A DNA stretch of 64,000 nucleotides from Candidatus Poribacteria bacterium (GTDB lineage: Bacteria; Poribacteria; WGA-4E; WGA-3G), in the NCBI GenBank assembly GCA_965208735.1, contig CBDBPM010000002.1, forward strand, positions 2,985,961 to 3,049,960, given 5' to 3'. The stretch's first letter is position 1, and each line of letters begins with the position of its first letter. A model generated the notes under the pieces. The model was not told the origin of the DNA, did not search any database, and worked only from the letters and a program-made list of their open reading frames with translations. The position numbers were made by a program, and so were the translations under genes. Positions 3,686 through 64,000 of this stretch are shown here, piece after piece.

Positions 3686-3712
3686 GTAGGCGCGGTTTGG
3701 AACCGCGCCTAC
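3686..3712. repeat. GGTAG-hairpin family member (gtaggcgcggtt-tgg-aaccgcgcctac), 12-bp stem
   Basis: Perfect palindrome read in sequence. Related copies at 18058, 35836, 51216, 51398, 51442, 58121, 58182 and 62490. Confidence 0.7.
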
Positions 3713-3778
3713 GGAAACAGAATATTGCTCCACAATTTCAGATATGACGAAACAACAGTCTCGGTTTGAAGGAGAAAG

Positions 3779-4528
3779 ATGAAACAACGCGTACTCATTA
3801 CAGGTGCGGCTGGCACGGTCGGCACCGCGCTCTGGAAGGCGTGGGAAGAACAGGATACTTACACATTAACGTTGATGGATATCAATCCGATTGTGGACGC
3901 GAATTCGCGCGTGGTGATTGCTGATATTCGCGACTCTGCCGCGATGCAGACGTTGTGCCGCGAGCAAGATGTGTTGGTACATCTGGCATACATCCGCCAA
4001 GATTCGCTTGGGAAGGTGCCCGGCGAAGTCAGCGATATCGGTGCATCTATGAATCTGTTTGAAGCAGCACGAGAAGGTGGCGTTAAAAAGATTGTATACG
4101 CCAGCACGAATCACGTCTCGGGTTGGAATGAGCGATTGAACTCGCCACCCCGATTCTCGACAGGTGACCAGTTTCGTCCAGACGGTTGGTACGGTGCAAT
4201 GAAAGGCATGGCAGAGATTGCTGGACGGTATCTCGTGGATGCCCACGATATGCGGTTCATCAGTATCCGTATCGGGAGTTTCAACGGGACGGACGAACCG
4301 AGTGGGATTCGCCACTGTAGCATACTCCTAACCCCGCGAGATTGCGTCCAACTCTTCGGCTTGGCTGTTGATTACGATGGACCCGTTAAATATCTGATTA
4401 CGTACGGACGTTCTGCAAACTCTGACGGGTATCAGCAGAGCTATCTTGATATAAGCGGTGCTGTTGAGGTGTTAGGGTATCAACCGCAGGACAATTTGGT
4501 TAAAACGCATCTCCACCTTTTTTTATAA
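3779..4528 (+). CDS. NAD-dependent epimerase/dehydratase family protein (SDR Rossmann fold)
   Basis: N-terminal MKQRVLITGAAGTVGTAL glycine-rich NAD-binding motif, plus a conserved YxxxK-like region (WYGAMKG). 249 aa. Confidence 0.65.
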   Translation: MKQRVLITGAAGTVGTALWKAWEEQDTYTLTLMDINPIVDANSRVVIADIRDSAAMQTLCREQDVLVHLAYIRQDSLGKVPGEVSDIGASMNLFEAAREGGVKKIVYASTNHVSGWNERLNSPPRFSTGDQFRPDGWYGAMKGMAEIAGRYLVDAHDMRFISIRIGSFNGTDEPSGIRHCSILLTPRDCVQLFGLAVDYDGPVKYLITYGRSANSDGYQQSYLDISGAVEVLGYQPQDNLVKTHLHLFL

Positions 4529-4740
4529 TACCTTGCGGTTCGATCAAGGGGTTTGATGCGTTGGTGTCTTATTCCGTATATCCGTTCTCCATTACATTAC
4601 GAACTATGTTTTTCGTACTAAGAAGAAACTGATTTTTAATATACCTTGCGGTTCGGTCAAACGGGTTTGATGCGTTGGTGTCTTATTCCGTATATCCGTT
4701 CTCCATTACATTACGAACTATGTTTTTGTTTTTTTAAATA
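4528..4740 (+). repeat. Tandem direct duplication of about 113 bp (two copies), each starting ATACCTTGCGGTTCG and preceded by a TATAAT-like box
   Basis: Copy 1 is 4528-4640 and copy 2 is 4641-about 4740. They are near-identical over more than 95 bp, including cgttggtgtcttattccgtatatccgttctccattacattacgaactatgttttt. Confidence 0.85.
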
Positions 4741-4753
4741 CCTAAAAAGAAAA

Positions 4754-5452
4754 ATGCGCGAAAATCCGAACTACACTGACCTCTACTATCAAAATACAAC
4801 TTCCCATTCCCAGATCATTGACATTATCACAGAACACGCTGTTTCACTCAGCGAAGTGGCTGTGCCGATTGATTGGGAAGCACTTTTCGGGAATACGCAT
4901 CCGGTGGAAATAGAAATTGGGTTCGGCAAGGGACGTTTCCTGCTTGAAGCGTCGAAACGGCATCCGAAAGTTAACTATATCGGCGTAGAGCGGGCACAGA
5001 AGTACGTTGAATTAACACGGGAGCGGTTTGAAAAGTACATGCGGCATTTTGGTGTCGATAGAGCGTCTGGGACGTTTTCTAACGTGCGGCTCGCGTGGAC
5101 GGATGCCAACTACTTTTTGACCCGATATGTCGCTACAGCATCTGTGCAGGCGTATCATATCTATTTCCCAGACCCGTGGCCCAGAAAGCGGCAGCAAAAA
5201 CGGCGGATTTTTCGGAATCAAGACTTTTTGGAAGCCTTGACGCGGACACTCACCTCAGAGGAGGGTCGGTTGTATATTGTGACAGATTATGAGTCATATT
5301 TCCAAGAGATTCAAGAACGATTTGCGGATTTGTCGGGACTTGATCCTATTGACGCGGATCTCAAACCCGATCGCGATATTGCCACGAACTTTGAAGCGAA
5401 GTATATCTTAGAGGGTAGACCTATCTATCGAATGGTGTATGAGAGAACCTAA
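4754..5452 (+). CDS. trmB: tRNA (guanine46-N7)-methyltransferase TrmB
   Basis: SAM-dependent methyltransferase core (EIGFGKGRFLLEASKRHPKVNYIGVE) and the characteristic YFPDPWPKKR-like motif (IYFPDPWPRKRQQKRR). Start moved to the ATG at 4754; the track ORF start at 4646 lies inside the tandem repeat. Confidence 0.75.
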   Translation: MRENPNYTDLYYQNTTSHSQIIDIITEHAVSLSEVAVPIDWEALFGNTHPVEIEIGFGKGRFLLEASKRHPKVNYIGVERAQKYVELTRERFEKYMRHFGVDRASGTFSNVRLAWTDANYFLTRYVATASVQAYHIYFPDPWPRKRQQKRRIFRNQDFLEALTRTLTSEEGRLYIVTDYESYFQEIQERFADLSGLDPIDADLKPDRDIATNFEAKYILEGRPIYRMVYERT

Positions 5453-5570
5453 CCCACTTTCTTGTAGGAGCGAGTTTTGCTCGCGAGGGTTGATTTATGC
5501 GAAAGTTCAGTTCTCTCAGGCGTAGACATAACCACGGGAACGTTTCACAAACCGGCACAGGAGCATAAAG

Positions 5571-7409
5571 ATGAACACAGAACAACAGGAAAAGGCGACC
5601 CCAGAATTGTGGCAATCGCTTCCGAATGTGCCGGGCGTTTATCTGATGAAAGCCTCCGATGGCACTGTCATCTATGTCGGGAAAGCGATCCGTCTGCGGA
5701 CACGGGTGCGCTCCTATTTCCGTGAGAAGTCTACATCTGGCTTGACATCGCAGATGATGCGGTATGTTACAGAGATTGATTACATTGTCACAGAGACGGA
5801 AGTAGAGGCGTTAATTCTGGAGAATAACCTGATTAAGGCGCATCAGCCCCGCTACAACGTGAAACTGAAAGACGATAAACGCTATCCCTATCTACGCGTA
5901 ACCACGAATGAACCCTTTCCGCGTATCCATATTACGCGGAAAGCCGAGAACGACGGCACACGATATTTCGGTCCCTTTGTTCACGTCCGTTCAACACGGC
6001 AGGTCGTTAAACAGTTAACGAAGTTCTTTCCTATTCGTACCTGTACCCTACCCCTCACGGAGACAGAAAATAAGTACCGGGTCTGTTTGGATTATCATAT
6101 TGGTCGGTGTCCGGGTCCGTGTGCAGATAAGATGAGTGTTGCAGATTACGACGAGATCGTTCAGAAGGTATGTCAGTTCTTGAGTGGGAACACAGATGCT
6201 GTTGTGAAAGAATTGACGGAGCAGATGGAAGCCGCAGCGGAGGCACTCGATTTTGAGACCGCCGCGAAGCATCGCGACACACTTAAAGACGTTCAGCAGG
6301 CGATTACAACACAGAATATGGATAGTGTCTCCGCGGCAGACGAAGATGTCATCGGCATTGCGGCGCGGACTGACATTGCGTGCGTGCAGCTGCTGCGGGT
6401 CCGGGATGGCAAGCTGCTTGAACGTGAGCACTATTACCTTAACGATGCAGATCCAGAGTCGCTCGCGACAGCATTAAGTGCGTTCATTTCGCAGTATTAT
6501 CAAAACGCTGTCTTCGTGCCAAAAACGGTTGTCTTGCCGATGCCGATTGCGTCCCTGGAACTGATCGCAAATTGGCTGAGCGAGAAGCGCGGGAGTCGTG
6601 TCGGAATACATGTGCCAAGAGCGGGGAGGCTCAGGAAGTTACAAACTTTGGCATCGAAAAACGCCGAGATTTTGCTGACGCAGCGGGAACAGAACGTGGT
6701 TTATAGCAGTGGCGTGGAACCCGCACTCGTTGAACTCCAGGAACTGCTTGAATTAAAACACCCGCTCAGACGGATTGAGGCGTACGATATTTCCAATCTC
6801 GGTGATCGGTTCGCCGTTGGGTCGATGGTGGTCTTGGAAGACGGGAAACCCGCTTCAAGTGAGTACCGCCGGTTCAAGATCCGATCGGTTGAAGGGCAGA
6901 ACGATTTCGCGATGATGCAAGAGGTGATCACGCGCCGTTTCCGCCGTGCCCTCGCAGACGATAAAAAATTTAATAAACTGCCGGATCTGATGCTGATTGA
7001 CGGTGGCAAAGGTCAACTGAGCACGGCACAGGCAGCTATGAAACCTTTCGCTACATCCCATCTTCCCGATATTCCGATGATTGCGCTGGCAAAGCGGATT
7101 GAGGAGATTTTCGTGCCCGGTAAAACAGAACCGATTGTGTTGCGGGAGGATAACCCGACCTTGCACATGATCCAACGGTTGCGAGATGAAGCGCACCGGT
7201 TCGCGATTACGTATCATCGGCAGCTCCGGCAAAAGTCGCTGAGTGTGTCTGTGCTTGACGAGATTCCGAACGTCGGTCCGAGGCGGAAACAGGCACTGCT
7301 CCAACATTTCGGTTCAATAGAGGCGATCCGGGAGGCGAGTTTAGACGGGTTGCTCTCTGTGAAAGGCATTCCCCGCAGCGTCGCCGAAAATATTCGAAAG
7401 CATCTCTAA
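5571..7409 (+). CDS. uvrC: Excinuclease ABC subunit C
   Basis: N-terminal GIY-YIG (PNVPGVYLMKASDGTVIYVGKA), UvrBC-interaction region, and C-terminal RNaseH-like/HhH region. 612 aa. Confidence 0.9.
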   Translation: MNTEQQEKATPELWQSLPNVPGVYLMKASDGTVIYVGKAIRLRTRVRSYFREKSTSGLTSQMMRYVTEIDYIVTETEVEALILENNLIKAHQPRYNVKLKDDKRYPYLRVTTNEPFPRIHITRKAENDGTRYFGPFVHVRSTRQVVKQLTKFFPIRTCTLPLTETENKYRVCLDYHIGRCPGPCADKMSVADYDEIVQKVCQFLSGNTDAVVKELTEQMEAAAEALDFETAAKHRDTLKDVQQAITTQNMDSVSAADEDVIGIAARTDIACVQLLRVRDGKLLEREHYYLNDADPESLATALSAFISQYYQNAVFVPKTVVLPMPIASLELIANWLSEKRGSRVGIHVPRAGRLRKLQTLASKNAEILLTQREQNVVYSSGVEPALVELQELLELKHPLRRIEAYDISNLGDRFAVGSMVVLEDGKPASSEYRRFKIRSVEGQNDFAMMQEVITRRFRRALADDKKFNKLPDLMLIDGGKGQLSTAQAAMKPFATSHLPDIPMIALAKRIEEIFVPGKTEPIVLREDNPTLHMIQRLRDEAHRFAITYHRQLRQKSLSVSVLDEIPNVGPRRKQALLQHFGSIEAIREASLDGLLSVKGIPRSVAENIRKHL

Positions 7410-58120: not shown

Positions 58121-58204
58121 GTAGGCGCGGTTTGTAACCGCGCCGGACGTTCAAGGAACGCGTTGTATTTACCCGTCTTCGCTGGCGAGGTTTCTAACCT
58201 CGCC
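58121..58204. repeat. Two GGTAG-hairpin family copies (gtaggcgcggtttgtaaccgcgcc and ctggcgaggtttctaacctcgcc)
   Basis: Read in sequence; the second is near-identical to the dnaN terminator hairpin. Confidence 0.7.
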
Positions 58205-58276: not shown

Positions 58277-58669
58277 TTACAAAATCCATGACTGTATATG
58301 GTCAGCAATCACTTCAATATCCGTTATGGTTCCATCCGCAATCTTAAGACCGAGTTCGATAATGGAATCGTTAATGTTGAGAGATAGGGTGCAACTGTTA
58401 AATTCTAAAAACAAAATGGCACAATGTAGACCAACACGCTTATTCCCGTCGAAAAATATATGCCCTGTGATAATGTGATGCGCATATACAGCGGCTTTTT
58501 GAGGCAAAGTTGGATACAGTTCAGTGTCACCGAATTTTCCACTAACTGCCTCAACCAGATAGCGTAATTGATTTTCATTCAACAATTGATAGTCACCGAC
58601 ATGTCCCTCAGCAACCTCCAGTATTTCCGCAATTGTCAAATATCTGAGATGTTGCCGAGAGTTTTCCAT
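58277..58669 (-). CDS. Doc-family (Fic-fold) toxin
   Basis: 130 aa with the Doc motif HIFFDGNKRVG (H-x-F-x-D-G-N-K-R). Confidence 0.7.
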   Translation of the reverse strand: MENSRQHLRYLTIAEILEVAEGHVGDYQLLNENQLRYLVEAVSGKFGDTELYPTLPQKAAVYAHHIITGHIFFDGNKRVGLHCAILFLEFNSCTLSLNINDSIIELGLKIADGTITDIEVIADHIQSWIL

Positions 58670-58941
58670 GCGCGATCGTAATTTCGTAATATTTCCTTTG
58701 AGGCTGTGGTACTGTTTATCCCGATACTGCTGGCAGCTGCCATGTCAGACTTTGCTTTTTCCGTTCCTCCGAGGCGTAACCAAGCCTTGCTGCGTCTGTA
58801 ATAGGCATCAGCATAATCGGGTTTGAGTTCTATCGCTTTGGTGTAGTTTTTAATAGCAAGCTCAACCTCACCTTTTTTGCTGTGAGCCAATCCGCGATTG
58901 TAATAGGTTTTGGCACACTTTTGATTCAGTTCTTTTGTCAT
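58636..58941 (-). CDS. Small TPR-repeat protein overlapping the Doc gene start by 34 bp
   Basis: Two TPR units (YYNRGLAHSKKGEVELAIKNYTKAIELKPDYADAYYRRSKAW) plus a C-terminal tail of about 35 aa. Confidence 0.45.
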   Translation of the reverse strand: MTKELNQKCAKTYYNRGLAHSKKGEVELAIKNYTKAIELKPDYADAYYRRSKAWLRLGGTEKAKSDMAAASSIGINSTTASKEILRNYDRAWKTLGNISDI

Positions 58942-59043
58942 ATTTTCTTTTTCCTTATACAGATAACTTGAAAAATTTGATTCTGGGCTTTTCTGACTCG
59001 CTGATTTGCAGAATAAGAGTGCTTTAGCAAGTTAATTTCCGAT

Positions 59044-59499
59044 TTAAGCTCCCCATGTTACAGTTAATTTTTCCACCGGTTCCACTACACGAAACTGGTT
59101 TGGAAAATCTTTCATTATATCAGTGATCTTATCATCCAGAATAGTGTCGTAGACAGTGGTTTCATAAGTAGTACTTTTTAGTAGAACATCTTTCTCATCA
59201 GATTCTTGTATGCCAATTTTCAGAGGAGCGTCACTAGTTACAGGTCTTTCTGTAGAATCGTGTAGACCAGAACGTTCGCTCTCAGCATATCGTTTTAACC
59301 GGTTCACATACATAAATATGTTACTAGCTAAATAATACTGCACCTCAATATTCATCCGATCAATTTCGGCAAGAAACCCACCCGCGGATAATTCATAATT
59401 CCGCGGGTTGGTTTCTACCTCTTGGAGTTTTTCAACCTGTTTTTGAAAACGTCCAATGCGCTCCAATGTTGCTTCAAGTTCTTGATTGTTCTGAATCAT
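59044..59499 (-). CDS. Hypothetical protein, probable partner of the disrupted nucleotidyltransferase (toxin or antitoxin-like second gene)
   Basis: 151-aa ORF overlapping the NTase fragment 3' end by 26 bp, as in NTase/HEPN-type pairs. I cannot identify a firm HEPN Rx4-6H motif by eye. Confidence 0.35.
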   Translation of the reverse strand: MIQNNQELEATLERIGRFQKQVEKLQEVETNPRNYELSAGGFLAEIDRMNIEVQYYLASNIFMYVNRLKRYAESERSGLHDSTERPVTSDAPLKIGIQESDEKDVLLKSTTYETTVYDTILDDKITDIMKDFPNQFRVVEPVEKLTVTWGA

Positions 59500-59761
59500 T
59501 GTGAATCACCTCAACTATACCGCGTTGAGTCTTGTCGCGTTTAGTTTGCCAGAATTCTTCTATTCCTTGATCATCGTTGAGCAGAGCCGACTCAGGAATC
59601 CAGAAAATACTTGCTCCTAAAACATTTTGTGCCTTTTGATGGTTAAAGATGAAAGCCGCTTCACCATGTACTTGACCGACATCAAATGAATCTTGCATCA
59701 GGAGGAATATATCCACATCACCCGGAATAGGTTTGGCTGTTATAAACGAACCATATATAAT
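59474..59761 (-). pseudogene. C-terminal fragment of a nucleotidyltransferase (MNT-type) gene separated from its 5' part by the IS/composite insertion
   Basis: Minus-strand frame immediately after the IS left inverted repeat reads (L)IIYGSFITAKPIPGDVDIFLLM..., the GS-x9-13-DxD NTase motif, with no upstream start. Confidence 0.6.
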
Positions 59762-60851
59762 TAGGACTTACGCAAAGTTGACGACAATAGAAGGCTTTTT
59801 GATCTCTCGTCGCAGATAGTCCTCGTATAAACTTTCTTTCAGGCGGTAAATCGTTTGACCCGTCGTGCGCGCAGCACGCGTCAAACTGACCCAGACCCAC
59901 AAACAACAGGCAATATGATTGCGTTGTCCACGATGTTGACGACTTTGGCACTTGCTGATACCTGTCGTTTGCTTGAGCTCACGATGAAGTTGCTCAATCT
60001 TCCAACGAACGCGACATTCTTGCTGCGTCGCAGTCACATCCGATTGAGATAAATCGTTGGTGGCAATATATTCCGTGCGTCTGGTGCCGGACGCTATCCG
60101 AAACAACTTCACTTGGTGGCCTTTCGGAAACTTGTAGATATGAACACGTTTACCCTGTCGCAACTCTGATTCTGTCCACGTCAGATCATCTATCCGTTTG
60201 TGCGGGTCAACACCCTCAGTGTCATTGACGAGACGATTGCGTTTCAAGGGAGCATAATAGATTTTTGAGAGACTCTGAATCGTTTTTAGCACTGCCATTG
60301 AAGCATACCAAGAATCTACTAACACGACCCGAAACGGGAGATTTTTCACGAAGTAGGCGTTCTGCAACATCTCCTGAAGGTGTTGAAGTTTGGTTTTCGC
60401 GTCTCGGTCTGGATCATAGATACGGTAATCAATAATCCAATACTGATGCGTCTTCGGATTGACATAGACACATGTCACGAGACCGATGCCTTGGATGACA
60501 CGTTTTTCGGAGCCACTCCACTGCCGGCGAACAGGTTCTATCTGTTTCGCATAAGGTTTTGGCATGACGGTATCATCAAAAAGAACGTATCCGTCTTCAT
60601 CAAACTCAATATCGTTTCGCACCGAACGCCAGAGTTCACGGGCAGGGATACGTTCGGTATTCAGGAGACGATTGAGTTGATCATGGCTCCATTTCTCCGT
60701 ATGATTGGCAAAGTGTGTCTGTGTGAAGTTCTGAAAACCGGCTAACAAAAATTGGCAATAATCCGAGAACAGCGGTTGTCTCTTTTCAGAAAGATTCATG
60801 CTCATCATAATTAAAAACTATAACACATTTTAATTCATTGCGTAAGTCCTA
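59762..60851 (-). mobile_element. IS4-superfamily (IS701-like) insertion sequence, 1090 bp, terminal IRs TAGGACTTACGCAA
   Basis: IRL 59762-59775 taggacttacgcaa. IRR 60838-60851 ttgcgtaagtccta. Encloses a 346-aa DDE transposase. Confidence 0.7.
59768..60808 (-). CDS. DDE transposase (IS4/IS701-like)
   Basis: DDE residues in ...YWIIDYRIYD..., ...VVLVDSWYAS..., and the downstream Y(2)R(3)E(6)K-like signature R-WKI-E-QLHREL-K. Confidence 0.75.
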   Translation of the reverse strand: MMSMNLSEKRQPLFSDYCQFLLAGFQNFTQTHFANHTEKWSHDQLNRLLNTERIPARELWRSVRNDIEFDEDGYVLFDDTVMPKPYAKQIEPVRRQWSGSEKRVIQGIGLVTCVYVNPKTHQYWIIDYRIYDPDRDAKTKLQHLQEMLQNAYFVKNLPFRVVLVDSWYASMAVLKTIQSLSKIYYAPLKRNRLVNDTEGVDPHKRIDDLTWTESELRQGKRVHIYKFPKGHQVKLFRIASGTRRTEYIATNDLSQSDVTATQQECRVRWKIEQLHRELKQTTGISKCQSRQHRGQRNHIACCLWVWVSLTRAARTTGQTIYRLKESLYEDYLRREIKKPSIVVNFA

Positions 60852-61151: not shown

Positions 61152-62336
61152 TTAGACCCGGTGGAGCTTTAGTAATTCCCAATTCGGCTCAAAACCGATG
61201 CCGGGACGAGACGGAACGGTAACATACCCATCGGGTTCTAAAACCATTGGTGGGAGGAACATTTCACCACGTAGCGGGTCCACAGCCGGTGGATAATATT
61301 CTAACATCAGACCGTTATTTCGACTTGCAGCGATATGGATTTGCAATTCTTGTGCACCGTGTGGCGCAATCAACTTTTCGGCTGCCAATGCTTCTTCAAC
61401 AACCTGCATCGCTGGTTCATAGCCGGGAAGGATCGCAACATCCAGGTTGAATACATCCGCGCCATCATAATCAATGAGTGTTTGGAAATAGTGTAACCCG
61501 TATCCGTTTTCTCCAGTGGCGATTTGTATACCATAATCTTGTGCTATCTCGCGGAACGCTTTATGTCCGCGGTAATCGTGGCTATGAATCGGTTCTTCAA
61601 ACCAGAAGATGTCGTTCGCCTGCAGCGCGGGCAGAAACACACGCGCCTCTTCAATCGACAAGGCACAATTCGCATCTACCATCACGGTAATATCGGAGCC
61701 GACCGTTTCGCGAACCGTCTCAATTCGTTTGATGTCTGTTTCAAGTCCGGCATCGGGGTCTCCAATCTTCATCTTAACCGCGGTGGCGTTGAACGCATTT
61801 ATATTCCGCGACATCTCCTCGCAGAGTTCGTCAAACCCCTTATCTCGACCGTAATAACCACCGGCGATATAGGTCCGGATGCGTTGCTGCGTACCGCCGA
61901 GTAAAGCGTGAACAGACTTCCCTTCTATTTTCCCACGAACATCCCAGCACGCTTGGTTTATTGCCGCGAGTACTTGTGTGTGATACCCACCGGGTCCGTA
62001 GATTTTGTAGTTCTCGGCTAACCGTGAGACGTAAGCGGTATCCGTCACATTGCGTCCGATCAATGCCGGACGGAACAGATCTACAAACTTTGGGAATATG
62101 GAGAGTGGACGGGTCGCAGCGGTGCCGCCGTTGAAACCGTATCCGACGATCTCTTCTGTCCCGCTTTTGGCGGTCACCTTTATGAGGTGCAGCCTGCCTT
62201 TATCATAGACGTGCATGCCGTTCCAGATGGGTGGCTTGTCCCATTCGTAGCGTTGGCTTTCAACGGCTGTGATTTTGAAGGTGGGTGTAGACATTGTTTC
62301 TCTATTCTGGGACTTCCCAAATGGATCTTGATGCAA
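61152..62336 (-). CDS. Enolase-superfamily enzyme (mandelate racemase / muconate lactonizing enzyme family)
   Basis: ...KIGDPDAGLETDIKRIETVRETVGSDITVMVDANCA... and ...FWFEEP... metal-ligand motifs of MR/MLE. Likely true start MSTPTFKITAVES at about 62294. Confidence 0.7.
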   Translation of the reverse strand: MHQDPFGKSQNRETMSTPTFKITAVESQRYEWDKPPIWNGMHVYDKGRLHLIKVTAKSGTEEIVGYGFNGGTAATRPLSIFPKFVDLFRPALIGRNVTDTAYVSRLAENYKIYGPGGYHTQVLAAINQACWDVRGKIEGKSVHALLGGTQQRIRTYIAGGYYGRDKGFDELCEEMSRNINAFNATAVKMKIGDPDAGLETDIKRIETVRETVGSDITVMVDANCALSIEEARVFLPALQANDIFWFEEPIHSHDYRGHKAFREIAQDYGIQIATGENGYGLHYFQTLIDYDGADVFNLDVAILPGYEPAMQVVEEALAAEKLIAPHGAQELQIHIAASRNNGLMLEYYPPAVDPLRGEMFLPPMVLEPDGYVTVPSRPGIGFEPNWELLKLHRV

Positions 62337-62525: not shown

Positions 62526-62664
62526 GCATCTCTAAAAAATTACCGAATTTAAAAATTAATCTTCATTTAGTTTGCGGAACTTACAGACACAATCTAACAG
62601 ATTATGCTACAAAGGTGGCAACTTGCGTTATTATAACACGAAAGCGGGAAATGCGTAAGTCCTA

Positions 62665-62846
62665 ATAATAAATCTAGCCACTTTTCTGGTGCTGGTTGCC
62701 AACATGAATATGTATTCCAACCGCTGTCCAACACGTTCTCTTTGGACAGTGCCTGTACCGAAATGTTGCAGCACCTCAGTCAACGTTGCTTGGTGAGTTC
62801 CTATAGGTAAATCTCCATTGTTGTCAAATTCGGGCCATTTCTTCAT
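62665..62846 (-). pseudogene. N-terminal fragment of the same nucleotidyltransferase gene (MKKWPEFDNNGDLPIGTHQATLTEVLQHF...RLEYIFMLATSTRKVARFII)
   Basis: The ORF runs into the solo IR at 62651-62664 and terminates inside it. The N-terminal G-LP-G-H--T--EV---F motif is typical of the N-domain preceding GSFxT...DxD in MNT-like NTases. Confidence 0.55.
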
Positions 62847-62871: not shown

Positions 62872-64000
62872 CTAAATTAGCATTGAAGCGATGTCTTTTG
62901 GCAACTGAACACCAATTGCCCGCTCAAGGTCTAAAATGCTTATGTTACGAAAGTTAGCAGTGATATCCACTCCACCGTCCCGAGCAATAATCAGGTCAGA
63001 TCTCGCTTTTTCCCATTCTCCTAAGACTAACCACGCAGCCCCGCGATTGTAATAGGCTAAGGCGAACATAGGGTATAGTTGTATCACCTTGTTAAAATCT
63101 TGGATAGCAAGGTTGTGCTCACCTTTGATGCCGAGAGCAACACCGCGGTTATTATATGCCTCGGCGTAATTGGATTTAAGTTCTATTGCATTGTCAAAAT
63201 CTTGGATGGCTCTATCGGAGTCACCGTTTTTATCGTACGCAACACCGCGTCTGTTGTAGACCTCAGCGGAATCGGGTTTTAGTTGTATTGCCTTGTTAAA
63301 GTCTTCAATAGCCAGGTCAAGGTTACTTTTTTCACTATACGCAAAGCCACGGTGATCATAGACTTCAGCGTAATCAGGTTTGAGTTCTATCGCTTTAGTA
63401 AAGTCTTGAATGGCAAGATCAAGGTTTCGTTTTTTGTTATAAGCAACACCCCGATGGTAATAGGATCTAGCATCATCCGGATTCAGTTTTATCGCCATGG
63501 TATAATCTGTAATGGCTTTGTCAACCTCGTCTTTATCTCGGTAAGCATCACCACGATTGCAATAAGCATTAACATAATCGGGTTTAAGTTGTAACGCCTT
63601 ACAAAAATCTTGTATAGCAGACTCTAAATTGCCTGTTTTGATGCAAGTAGTGCCTCGGTTGTTATAAGGTTTGGCATAGTCGGGCCTTAGTTCTATTGCT
63701 TTGTCAAAGTCCGTGATGGCTTTGTCAATCTTGCCTTTTTTACCATATGCAACGCCGCGATTGTTGTAGAAGTCAGCATCAATTTCAGGTTTGAGTTCTA
63801 TTGCTGTAGTATAGTCTTGAATAGCAAGGTCCAGGTCGCCGTTTTTCTCGTAGATAACACCGCGAGTATTATATGCTTCAGCATCATTGGGTATTAATCG
63901 TATCGCCTTAGTAAGATCTTCAATGGCTTTATCAAATTCGTCTTTTTTACTATAAGACAAGCCGCGATAAATATGAGCTTTGACATCACTGGGGTTCAGT
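62872..64000 (-). CDS. TPR-repeat protein (at least 10 TPR units); the N-terminus lies beyond the window end, so it is partial
   Basis: Repeating AxxYxxRGxAYxxxxxxDxAIxDFxKAIELxPD units. The frame stays open upstream of the track start (TTG at 63960) to position 64000. Confidence 0.6.
   Translation of the reverse strand, partial: LNPSDVKAHIYRGLSYSKKDEFDKAIEDLTKAIRLIPNDAEAYNTRGVIYEKNGDLDLAIQDYTTAIELKPEIDADFYNNRGVAYGKKGKIDKAITDFDKAIELRPDYAKPYNNRGTTCIKTGNLESAIQDFCKALQLKPDYVNAYCNRGDAYRDKDEVDKAITDYTMAIKLNPDDARSYYHRGVAYNKKRNLDLAIQDFTKAIELKPDYAEVYDHRGFAYSEKSNLDLAIEDFNKAIQLKPDSAEVYNRRGVAYDKNGDSDRAIQDFDNAIELKSNYAEAYNNRGVALGIKGEHNLAIQDFNKVIQLYPMFALAYYNRGAAWLVLGEWEKARSDLIIARDGGVDITANFRNISILDLERAIGVQLPKDIASMLI

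Follow-up and report, generated by a model that had tools for sequence, protein, structure and literature searches.

Overlapping genes for a TPR protein and a Doc-family toxin

The DNA analysed here, called the window throughout, is a stretch of 64,000 nucleotides from a Candidatus Poribacteria bacterium (GenBank assembly GCA_965208735.1, contig CBDBPM010000002.1, positions 2,985,961 to 3,049,960). On its minus strand lie two overlapping genes, the upstream of which encodes a 101-aa tetratricopeptide repeat (TPR) protein, referred to here as the partner, and the downstream of which encodes a protein of the Doc (death-on-curing) family of toxins. The evidence that the pair is probably a toxin-antitoxin (TA) module, with the TPR protein as the antitoxin, is presented below. 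The features of the pair, in window coordinates, are as follows.

58636-58941, minus strand: gene for the TPR-fused putative antitoxin, 101 aa, with TPR matches in Pfam
58723-58935, minus strand: TPR domain of the partner, residues 3-73, two TPR helix hairpins (AlphaFold2 (AF2) model and Pfam)
58639-58722, minus strand: C-terminal tail of the partner, residues 74-101, the proposed Doc-neutralising segment (conservation, AF2, hhalign and hot-spot register)
58651-58704, minus strand: core motif of the tail, residues 80-97, ASKEILRNYDRAWKTLGN
58277-58669, minus strand: gene for the Doc-family toxin, 130 aa counted from the ATG at 58669, with the catalytic loop H70-I-F-F-D-G-N-K-R78
58636-58669, minus strand: overlap of the partner 3' end and the Doc 5' end, 34 nt in different frames, with the Doc ATG inside the Ala-Trp codons of the partner
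58636-58639, minus strand: TTGA, an alternative start/stop overlap within the 34-nt overlap

By profile, catalytic loop and predicted fold, the product of the downstream gene is a Doc-family toxin. It matched the Pfam family Fic (E 1.3e-9, 39.2 bits against a cutoff of 24) and the NCBIfam model TIGR01550 DOC_P1 (E 1.1e-12, 48.2 bits against a cutoff of 38.65), the title of which is 'type II toxin-antitoxin system death-on-curing family toxin'. An intact HIFFDGNKRVG motif had been reported in the initial annotation, and family models, alignments and fold bore this out for HIFFDGNKR, which conforms to HxFx(D/N)(A/G)NKR, the form that the Fic motif takes in Doc kinases. All residues of the loop were invariant in an eight-sequence alignment of Doc; across 56 relatives H70 and K77 were conserved in at least 90% and the others were invariant. 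The AF2 model (predicted local distance difference test score (pLDDT) 88.8) has the all-helical Fic core fold of the Doc type with residues 1-12 unstructured, and its five top Foldseek matches in the PDB were chains of P1 Doc (3DD7, 3KH2 and 3K33; TM 0.73-0.78, probability 1.00), from structures that had been solved with Phd. The search for homologues of the protein yielded 513, the nearest of which, at up to 98% identity, are named Candidatus Poribacteria.

The partner scored above the Pfam cutoffs for TPR_11, TPR_1, TPR_8 and TPR_2, with TPR_1 at residues 10-43 and TPR_11 at residues 22-58. In the AF2 model the helices at residues 3-22, 26-39, 44-56 and 60-73 are packed, with pLDDT of about 90-95, and a further helix is placed in the tail at residues 79-95 with low confidence (pLDDT 47-58). 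A confident TPR domain followed by a helical tail of low pLDDT is the pattern that a tail folding on binding would be expected to give. The two TPR units described in the initial annotation are therefore upheld by AF2 and Pfam, while the tail, put there at about 35 aa, is shorter, about 28 aa (residues 74-101). The 261 homologues of the partner are mostly 97-103 aa long; one database protein (P0194) is 100% identical to it. Exact-sequence look-ups gave no record for P0194 or for the Doc protein of the window. A frameshifted or fused pseudogene was considered for the partner and rejected, as the 97-103-aa form is intact in dozens of genomes. No match to Phd/YefM, AbrB or ribbon-helix-helix (RHH) families was found in the partner or in the neighbouring open reading frames (ORFs) of the window, in agreement with the earlier statement that no Phd/YefM-like ORF is present. 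With no match to Phd/YefM (PF02604) at E <= 0.1 in Pfam, the partner is outside the Phd family, and only its tail would resemble that of Phd in role.

Conservation of the gene pair

Loci carrying this clade of Doc were surveyed using one genome per species, which gave 80 species-level loci, 79 of them labelled Poribacteria or uncultured. The remaining locus (L070) is from a Vicinamibacterales metagenome-assembled genome; its partner protein is identical to that of a Poribacteria locus (L082) and it has the same MPI-cupin and AIRS flanks, and the label is probably a binning error rather than a horizontal transfer.

Conservation of the neighbourhood had been proposed as a check on the TPR-Doc pairing, and the pairing held: in 79 of the 80 loci the upstream ORF overlaps Doc and bears [YH]x[RQH]AW[KRTES]xL within its last 25 residues. 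The sole exception is a truncated contig with 150 nt upstream of Doc. The converse arrangement, in which homologous Doc genes always accompany Phd and the TPR gene is unlinked, was not what was seen, and a reciprocal check that started from the partner likewise led to a Fic gene. The pair occupies at least three independent genomic contexts; 29 loci lie upstream of MPI-cupin and acyltransferase genes, as in the window, four or five lie between sulfatases and an Ala-racemase-like gene, and the rest are elsewhere.

Mean identity was 77% for Doc and 68% for the partner, against 95% for the adjacent MPI-cupin and 83% for the acyltransferase. The faster divergence of Doc and the partner than of their flanks is, at the level of sequence, more in keeping with a conflict cassette than with a housekeeping kinase. 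The suggestion in the initial annotation that Doc may be an orphan or a domesticated kinase is thus disfavoured, since Doc was never found alone and diverges faster than the flanking housekeeping genes; a slowly evolving domesticated kinase was rejected on the same identity values.

Two further observations were made among these loci. The Doc proteins of L004 (3627-4025) and L003 (3735-4025) are identical (P0036), and their partners, of 132 aa and 96 aa respectively, are one whole TPR unit apart, a difference in sequence that indicates recent gain or loss of a TPR unit in the putative antitoxin. In L088 (3022-3273) and L089 Doc has undergone a truncation or frameshift (leaving 83 aa in L088) and the tail of the partner is intact, which represents decay of the toxin gene.

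A constant tail on exchangeable N-termini

The tail is the most conserved portion of the partner, with the consensus ...(L/S)D(E/K)(I/T)Lxx-Y-D-R-A-W-K-T-L-G-N. Among 62 unique tails the Ala, Trp and anchor Leu were invariant, Tyr(-7), Arg(-5) and Lys(-2) were present in at least 94% and Asp(-13) was nearly invariant. The equivalents in the window are A91, W92 and L95, which are invariant, and Y88, R90 and K93, which are nearly so.

The portion preceding the tail is variable. Partners at 79 loci included 47 short TPR proteins of ~97-135 aa, 16 proteins of 136-400 aa and 13 of more than 400 aa, and the number of TPR units lay between 2 and about 23. A TIR_2 N-terminus is present in at least five of the long partners (L058, L029, L077, L071 and L044), with L058 having the architecture TIR_2-TPRx18-tail, and an FRG N-terminus is present in two (L060 and L049). 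The TIR assignments are taken from Pfam scans of the N-termini, a jackhmmer TIR search having drifted into TPR. In the long forms the tail comes after long flexible linkers. Furthermore, at three species loci the tail is borne by a 69-aa helical protein without TPR units (MRKADLQQQAVELIKQLSTE...DFEIVLDEIVRKYDRAWKTLAKP), which also overlaps a Fic gene and belongs to a family of ~70 database clusters; no family in Pfam, NCBIfam or PADLOC was matched by it. A tail that stays constant while the N-termini interchange, and that adjoins Doc in every case, is characteristic of a toxin-binding element.

A tail of the Doc type was also observed at an internal position in P0314 (205 aa), in P0356 (349 aa) and at L105 2501-3953, where it is followed by an extra domain of ~135 aa that has no Pfam match. 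The next overlapping gene in these cases encodes a protein of 137 aa that is not Doc and likewise has no Pfam match.

Gene overlap and surrounding signals

The 34-bp overlap given in the initial annotation stands (58636-58669), provided that Doc starts at the ATG at 58669. This ATG, inside the Ala-Trp codons, is invariant and is one of two possible starts of Doc in the window, the other being a TTG at 58639-58637, which overlaps the partner stop codon as TTGA. The overlap in relatives is 25, 28, 31 or 34 nt, or ATGA; in most the two genes share 25 nt, or 4 nt (ATGA) where Met8 is taken as the start of Doc. The family consensus is the classic ATGA stop/start overlap with Doc beginning at Met8 (MRYLT...). 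The window has ATCTCA in place of the consensus ATATGA, so that the stop and the start are both lost and the tail is longer by three residues (ISDI).

Variation in the overlap was compared in 71 unique relatives, and the variable sites coincided with the third codon positions of the tail frame. Relative to the consensus, 123 codon differences were synonymous and 98 non-synonymous in the tail frame, against 30 and 190 in the Doc frame, and selection in the overlap, as read from these sequences, follows the tail frame and not the Doc frame. Conservation of the tail also reaches 40 nt upstream of the overlap, where it includes the Y, D, R and I/L residues. Taken together, the pattern of variation in the tail frame and the conserved Y-D-R and I/L upstream argue that conservation of the tail is not a by-product of the overlap.

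The regions on either side of the pair contain the following features.

58942-59043, minus strand: intergenic region upstream of the pair, with a Shine-Dalgarno-like AAGGA at 58952-58956, 10 nt ahead of the partner ATG
58124-58144 and 58184-58204, no strand assigned: two GC-rich hairpins downstream of Doc, similar to repetitive extragenic palindromic (REP) elements, a possible transcript end of the pair

A scan for sigma-70 promoters and terminators upstream of the partner found no minus-strand site at 58942-59043, where the promoter rules of Poribacteria may differ, and a search around the pair for operator palindromes and repeats found nothing other than a weak 12-nt inverted repeat. The hairpin pattern GGCGNGGTTNNNAACCNCGCC occurs in five copies in the window against 0.02 expected. 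These are dispersed 21-nt GC-rich hairpins of the form GGCG(N)GGTT-NNN-AACC(N)CGCC with compensatory changes in the stem, located at 3689, 18058, 51218, 58124 and 58184 (plus strand), and they may represent a REP-like element or a terminator.

Motif-level likeness of the tail to known Doc antitoxins

The tail was compared with the products of genes upstream of 13 distant plasmid Doc genes, the Doc proteins having 26-38% identity to that of the window and the hosts being Actinomycetota, Bacillota, Deinococcota, Spirochaetota and Pseudomonadota. The N-termini of these 13 partners are AbrB/MazE, CopG/RHH or unannotated. Twelve of them fit a common C-terminal pattern (small residue - F/Y/L - K/R/D/E - x - L - small - polar - end), examples being ...NQYDKAFKELVNH, ...SEYGDVLKGLADR, ...REYGPAFRRLADL and ...QNIEAYKELAK; the odd one, from Mycobacterium (...AELNRRLA), has Asn at the F/Y/L position. 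The C-terminus of P1 Phd, ...DSTNKELVNR, has a K-x-L-V-N ending as in the plasmid set, and the Poribacteria tails end ...RNYDRAWKTLGN(I/L/V).

Alignment of the Poribacteria tails with the tails of known Doc antitoxins by hhalign gave a probability of 74% (P 2.8e-5) in a gapless end-to-end register with the C-terminal Leu as anchor. A regular expression for the class, derived from the known antitoxins, matched 86 partner tails and 12 known antitoxins, and 16 of ~7,340 decoy ORFs (0.2%). An alanine scan of Salmonella Phd has identified F56, I59, M60, H63, L67 and L70 as hot spots, with F56 and L70 as 'gatekeepers' required for inhibition (PMC9207808). These residues lie at offsets of -14, -11, -10, -7, -3 and 0 from L70, and the conserved hydrophobic residues of the Poribacteria tail at the same six offsets are L/S, I/T, L, Y, W and L (S81, I84, L85, Y88, W92 and L95 in the window). 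The tail thus appears, on sequence, to be the same class of motif as the tail of Phd, the replaced part being the N-terminal DNA-binding domain.

The TPR protein as a probable antitoxin

These data are best explained if the TPR protein is the cognate antitoxin of Doc and neutralises it by means of a C-terminal helix similar to that of Phd and formed on binding, a reading which, from sequence and structural models, we consider probable. The proposal in the initial annotation of a TPR-fused antitoxin, with the tail acting as the C-terminus of Phd, is accordingly favoured by the pairing in 79 of the 80 loci, by the conservation of the tail, by its occurrence on unrelated N-termini and by the antitoxin motif and register. 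The pair would then be a two-gene, type II-like TA module of the Doc family, with the upstream, translationally coupled 101-aa protein as the antitoxin. Its last ~20 residues, with I84, L85, Y88, W92 and L95 on one helical face, would be disordered when the protein is alone and would fold to a helix in the groove of Doc that is taken by residues 52-73 of Phd. Doc itself is predicted to be an active Fic-fold kinase, and by analogy with P1 and Salmonella Doc its target may be EF-Tu, the phosphorylation of which would stop translation. Physical binding, neutralisation, toxicity and target, and the role of the TPR units, are what we infer from sequence rather than observe.

Type II antitoxins usually consist of a DNA-binding domain and a disordered toxin-binding tail, the DNA-binding domain being typical but not universal. 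In the partner two TPR repeats would stand in for the N-terminal domain (Phd/YefM, AbrB/MazE or RHH) that usually serves in DNA binding and dimerisation, and since the DNA-binding domain is replaced by TPR, the antitoxin probably does not autoregulate the operon by DNA binding. The TPR part would more likely provide stability, oligomerisation or a site for a protein or peptide ligand that governs the release of Doc.

Several results weigh against this reading. With no DNA-binding domain and no operator detected, the pair departs from classical type II regulation. At offset -14, the equivalent of the F56 'gatekeeper', the window has Ser, which is not hydrophobic. A HMMER search of PDB sequences with the tail profile missed Phd and gave only chance matches (DnaJ-like, DarR); a hidden Markov model (HMM) of 14 known Doc-antitoxin tails, searched against all ORFs of the window, missed the TPR ORF, the best score being ~5 bits; and the reverse HMM search ranked the AbrB antitoxin of S. 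simulans first of ~1,180 sequences at an E value of only 1.6. The likeness of the tails lies at the level of motif and helical register, and amphipathic helices can converge on such a pattern. Moreover, the 80 loci are members of a single clade (62-98% identity), and the pairing therefore partly reflects shared ancestry.

Other explanations of the pair differ in what the tail and the TPR units are for. The tail may be the capping (solvating) helix of the TPR array, or may be kept for its overlap with the start and translation-initiation region of Doc, in which case the TPR protein would be no antitoxin and Doc would be an orphan or otherwise regulated. TPR arrays do normally end in an extra helix, AF2 places one directly after the second TPR, and the Doc ATG is embedded in the invariant Ala-Trp codons. 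However, the tail is also found on the 69-aa family without TPR and behind the long flexible linkers of the long forms, its helix scores low in pLDDT where the packed TPR helices score high, its conservation runs 40 nt upstream of the overlap with variation in the overlap periodic in the tail frame, and its motif matches the antitoxins of unrelated Doc genes; this explanation is consequently held to be improbable. Less probable still is that the TPR protein acts as a positive adaptor which brings a substrate to Doc; instead of a toxin with its inhibitor, the pair would then form a modifying enzyme of two subunits. In FICD/HYPE, BiP is recruited by two TPRs, the combination of two TPRs with a Fic-fold enzyme recalls FICD, FICD structures were the next-best fold matches after P1 Doc, and the pair is widely kept in one phylum. 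At E ~0.1 and TMt ~0.26, the FICD fold matches were nevertheless weak beside those to Doc, the catalytic loop is of the Doc kinase type (NKR) and not the GNGR of AMPylases, and the putative link between the two proteins is a tail of the inhibitory, antitoxin type; in addition, the number and identity of the TPRs are not conserved, TPR is sometimes absent and the genes evolve fast.

It is also possible, although doubtful, that the TPR protein is a ligand-sensing scaffold whose tail holds Doc in a latent state, so that a phage or foreign protein on the TPR array would free Doc and stop translation (abortive infection); TIR and FRG would then be additional effector or sensor modules in the long forms and the two-TPR form of the window a minimal or reduced one. 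This would be an elaboration of the antitoxin reading and not an alternative to inhibition by the tail. In its favour are the TIR_2-TPR-tail and FRG-TPR-tail partners, the match of the TIR part to defence TIR models in PADLOC, the genes for an AAA_15 ATPase (AriA/GajA/PtuA-like) and a TIR-TPR protein that immediately precede the pair in L009 and five other loci, the matches of Doc to the PADLOC candidate defence proteins PDC-S23 and PDC-M59B, the faster divergence of the cassette than of its flanks and the TPR-fused partner that a ParE toxin likewise has. Yet these points concern architecture and not function, two TPR units offer a very small binding surface, the 69-aa partners indicate that TPR is dispensable for pairing, and the flanking genes on one side in the window are metabolic.

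On the antitoxin reading, the arrangement is modular and spans a whole candidate phylum, and a concrete function is suggested for a number of the 'eukaryote-like' TPR proteins that are abundant in sponge symbionts and have at present no annotation beyond 'tetratricopeptide repeat protein' or 'hypothetical'. If the TPR units sense a ligand, this would be a simple natural case of an antitoxin in which recognition of a protein, and not transcription or bulk proteolysis, controls release of the toxin.

Neighbouring genes and related TPR proteins

TPR-fused antitoxin-like proteins may, judging from sequence, serve more than one toxin family. On contig L106 (2468-3614) a 296-aa protein made up of a TPR array, a helical antitoxin module and a tail overlaps a gene for a 91-aa ParE_toxin (PF05016, 1.7e-8), and at 3712-5858 of the same contig a Fic/Doc gene overlaps that of a 700-aa TIR_2-TPR protein whose C-terminus reads ...DEIIRNYDRAWKTLAKP, with an FRG-TPR protein upstream. 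A profile of the 69-aa family was searched against 1.84 billion representatives, and TPR arrays fused to the module of this family with a further tail (...ERAKADIKAGRLKRWDDVRRDV) were found, the 296-aa protein of L106 being of this type. The N-terminal ~45 residues of the family also occur with other tails, recognised by eye, which we take to be VapB-like. A general class of TPR-tethered antitoxins in Poribacteria, and perhaps in other sponge symbionts, is put forward tentatively; toxin-specific tails would be carried on TPR arrays, often with TIR or FRG, and the array would be a ligand sensor gating release of the toxin. Such a class, if real, would merge classical TA modules with TPR-sensor proteins of immunity and host interaction, with the two-TPR gene of the window as a minimal member.

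At L009 (1-3674), and also at L015, L023, L031, L051, L062 and L065, an AAA_15/SMC_N ATPase (in PADLOC AriA, GajA, PtuA, with an LmuB-like N-terminus) is found directly upstream of a TPR-Doc pair of the short form, and at L009 an 808-aa TIR-TPR protein precedes the ATPase. The arrangement may represent a more extensive cluster of defence-like character, or else a TIR-TPR-tail gene that has been split.

In the window, the region upstream of the pair contains two fragments matching DUF6932 on the minus strand, ~2.9 kb apart, at 62631-62846 (profile positions 1-45, E 1e-6) and 59474-59716 (profile positions 71-141, E 4e-4). Between them lie an IS4-type DDE transposase (59768-60808) and an enolase-superfamily gene (61152-62336), and from its sequence the DUF6932 gene looks to have been split by an insertion associated with the insertion sequence or by rearrangement. 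A 151-aa ORF at 59044-59499 (minus strand), with no family match in Pfam, NCBIfam or PADLOC, overlaps the end of the DUF6932 fragment by 26 nt. In L023 the TPR-Doc pair is immediately preceded by a 73-aa ORF that is homologous to the first ~57 residues of this ORF (MIQNNQELEATLERIGRFQK...), and tblastn matches were also found near the pair in L088, L051, L076 and L089. The ORF and the DUF6932 fragment may constitute a second small two-gene cassette beside the Doc module. At 62872-63999 (minus strand), running past the end of the window, is a gene for a long TPR protein of at least 376 aa with about 10 repeats, ending ...AAWLVLGEWEKARSDLIIARDGGVDITANFRNISILDLERAIGVQLPKDIASMLI*. It stops where related proteins elsewhere go on into an antitoxin module or a Doc-type tail, and the N-terminal DUF6932 fragment then follows.

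Comparison with known systems

A Doc-type TA module is in itself known, and the new element is the N-terminal half of the partner, in which a protein-interaction repeat takes the place of a DNA-binding domain. In the literature searched, coverage of which was partial so that the absence is weak evidence, no description was found of a TPR-Doc module, a TPR antitoxin or a Poribacteria TA system with TPR.

Among the closest counterparts is Phd-Doc of P1 and Salmonella (PDB 3K33, 3DD7 and 3KH2), with which the pair shares the Doc fold, the HxFxDxNKR loop, an overlapping upstream (putative) antitoxin gene and a predicted amphipathic C-terminal helix of its product that has hydrophobic residues at the hot-spot positions of Phd and ends just past the anchor Leu. 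Unlike Phd, the partner has two TPR units for the Phd/YefM N-terminus, with which neither DNA binding nor autoregulation nor conditional cooperativity would be expected, and the sequence likeness of the tails is at the level of motif and profile-profile comparison only.

Doc is known to combine with many antitoxin types, and the MazE-type partners of Doc-like toxins share a well-conserved C-terminal end (Fico & Mahillon 2006, PMC1626090). The composite TasA-TasB modules described there resemble the Poribacteria pair in joining a Doc-like toxin to a protein with a non-Phd N-terminal domain, and the plasmid examples end ...Y-x-x-A-F/Y/L-K/R-x-L-x-x, similar to the Poribacteria tail. Their N-termini, however, bind DNA, which TPR does not, and PMC1626090 describes no TPR, TIR or FRG fusions. 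Those modules are also mostly plasmid-borne, whereas the Poribacteria module is chromosomal and spread in one phylum.

Among the relatives of the partner, the long ones are TIR_2-TPR arrays with matches to defence TIR models, and in this they resemble TIR-TPR and TPR-sensor defence proteins (Avs-like proteins and Thoeris-type TIR). In the PADLOC models and the literature searched the latter have neither a Doc-binding tail nor a Doc gene downstream, and the partner in the window has no TIR.

The class I Fic antitoxins (VbhA of VbhA-VbhT and FicA of FicA-FicT) are, like the partner, small and without a DNA-binding domain, and they inhibit a Fic-fold toxin by means of an inserted helix, as is proposed for the partner; FicT-FicA structures were among the weak fold matches of the Doc model. 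They differ from the partner in that their motif, (S/T)xxxE(G/N), blocks positioning of the ATP gamma-phosphate, their toxin is an AMPylase and they have no TPR. Two TPR motifs together with a Fic-fold enzyme are found in FICD/HYPE and in FIC-1 of C. elegans, which came next after Doc among the structural matches of the Doc model; these are single polypeptides, AMPylases/deAMPylases with a GNGR loop, an intramolecular inhibitory helix and TPRs that recruit substrate. In the window pair, in contrast to FICD/HYPE, the TPR units and the enzyme are on separate proteins, the loop is that of a Doc kinase and the proposed link between the two is a tail of the antitoxin type.

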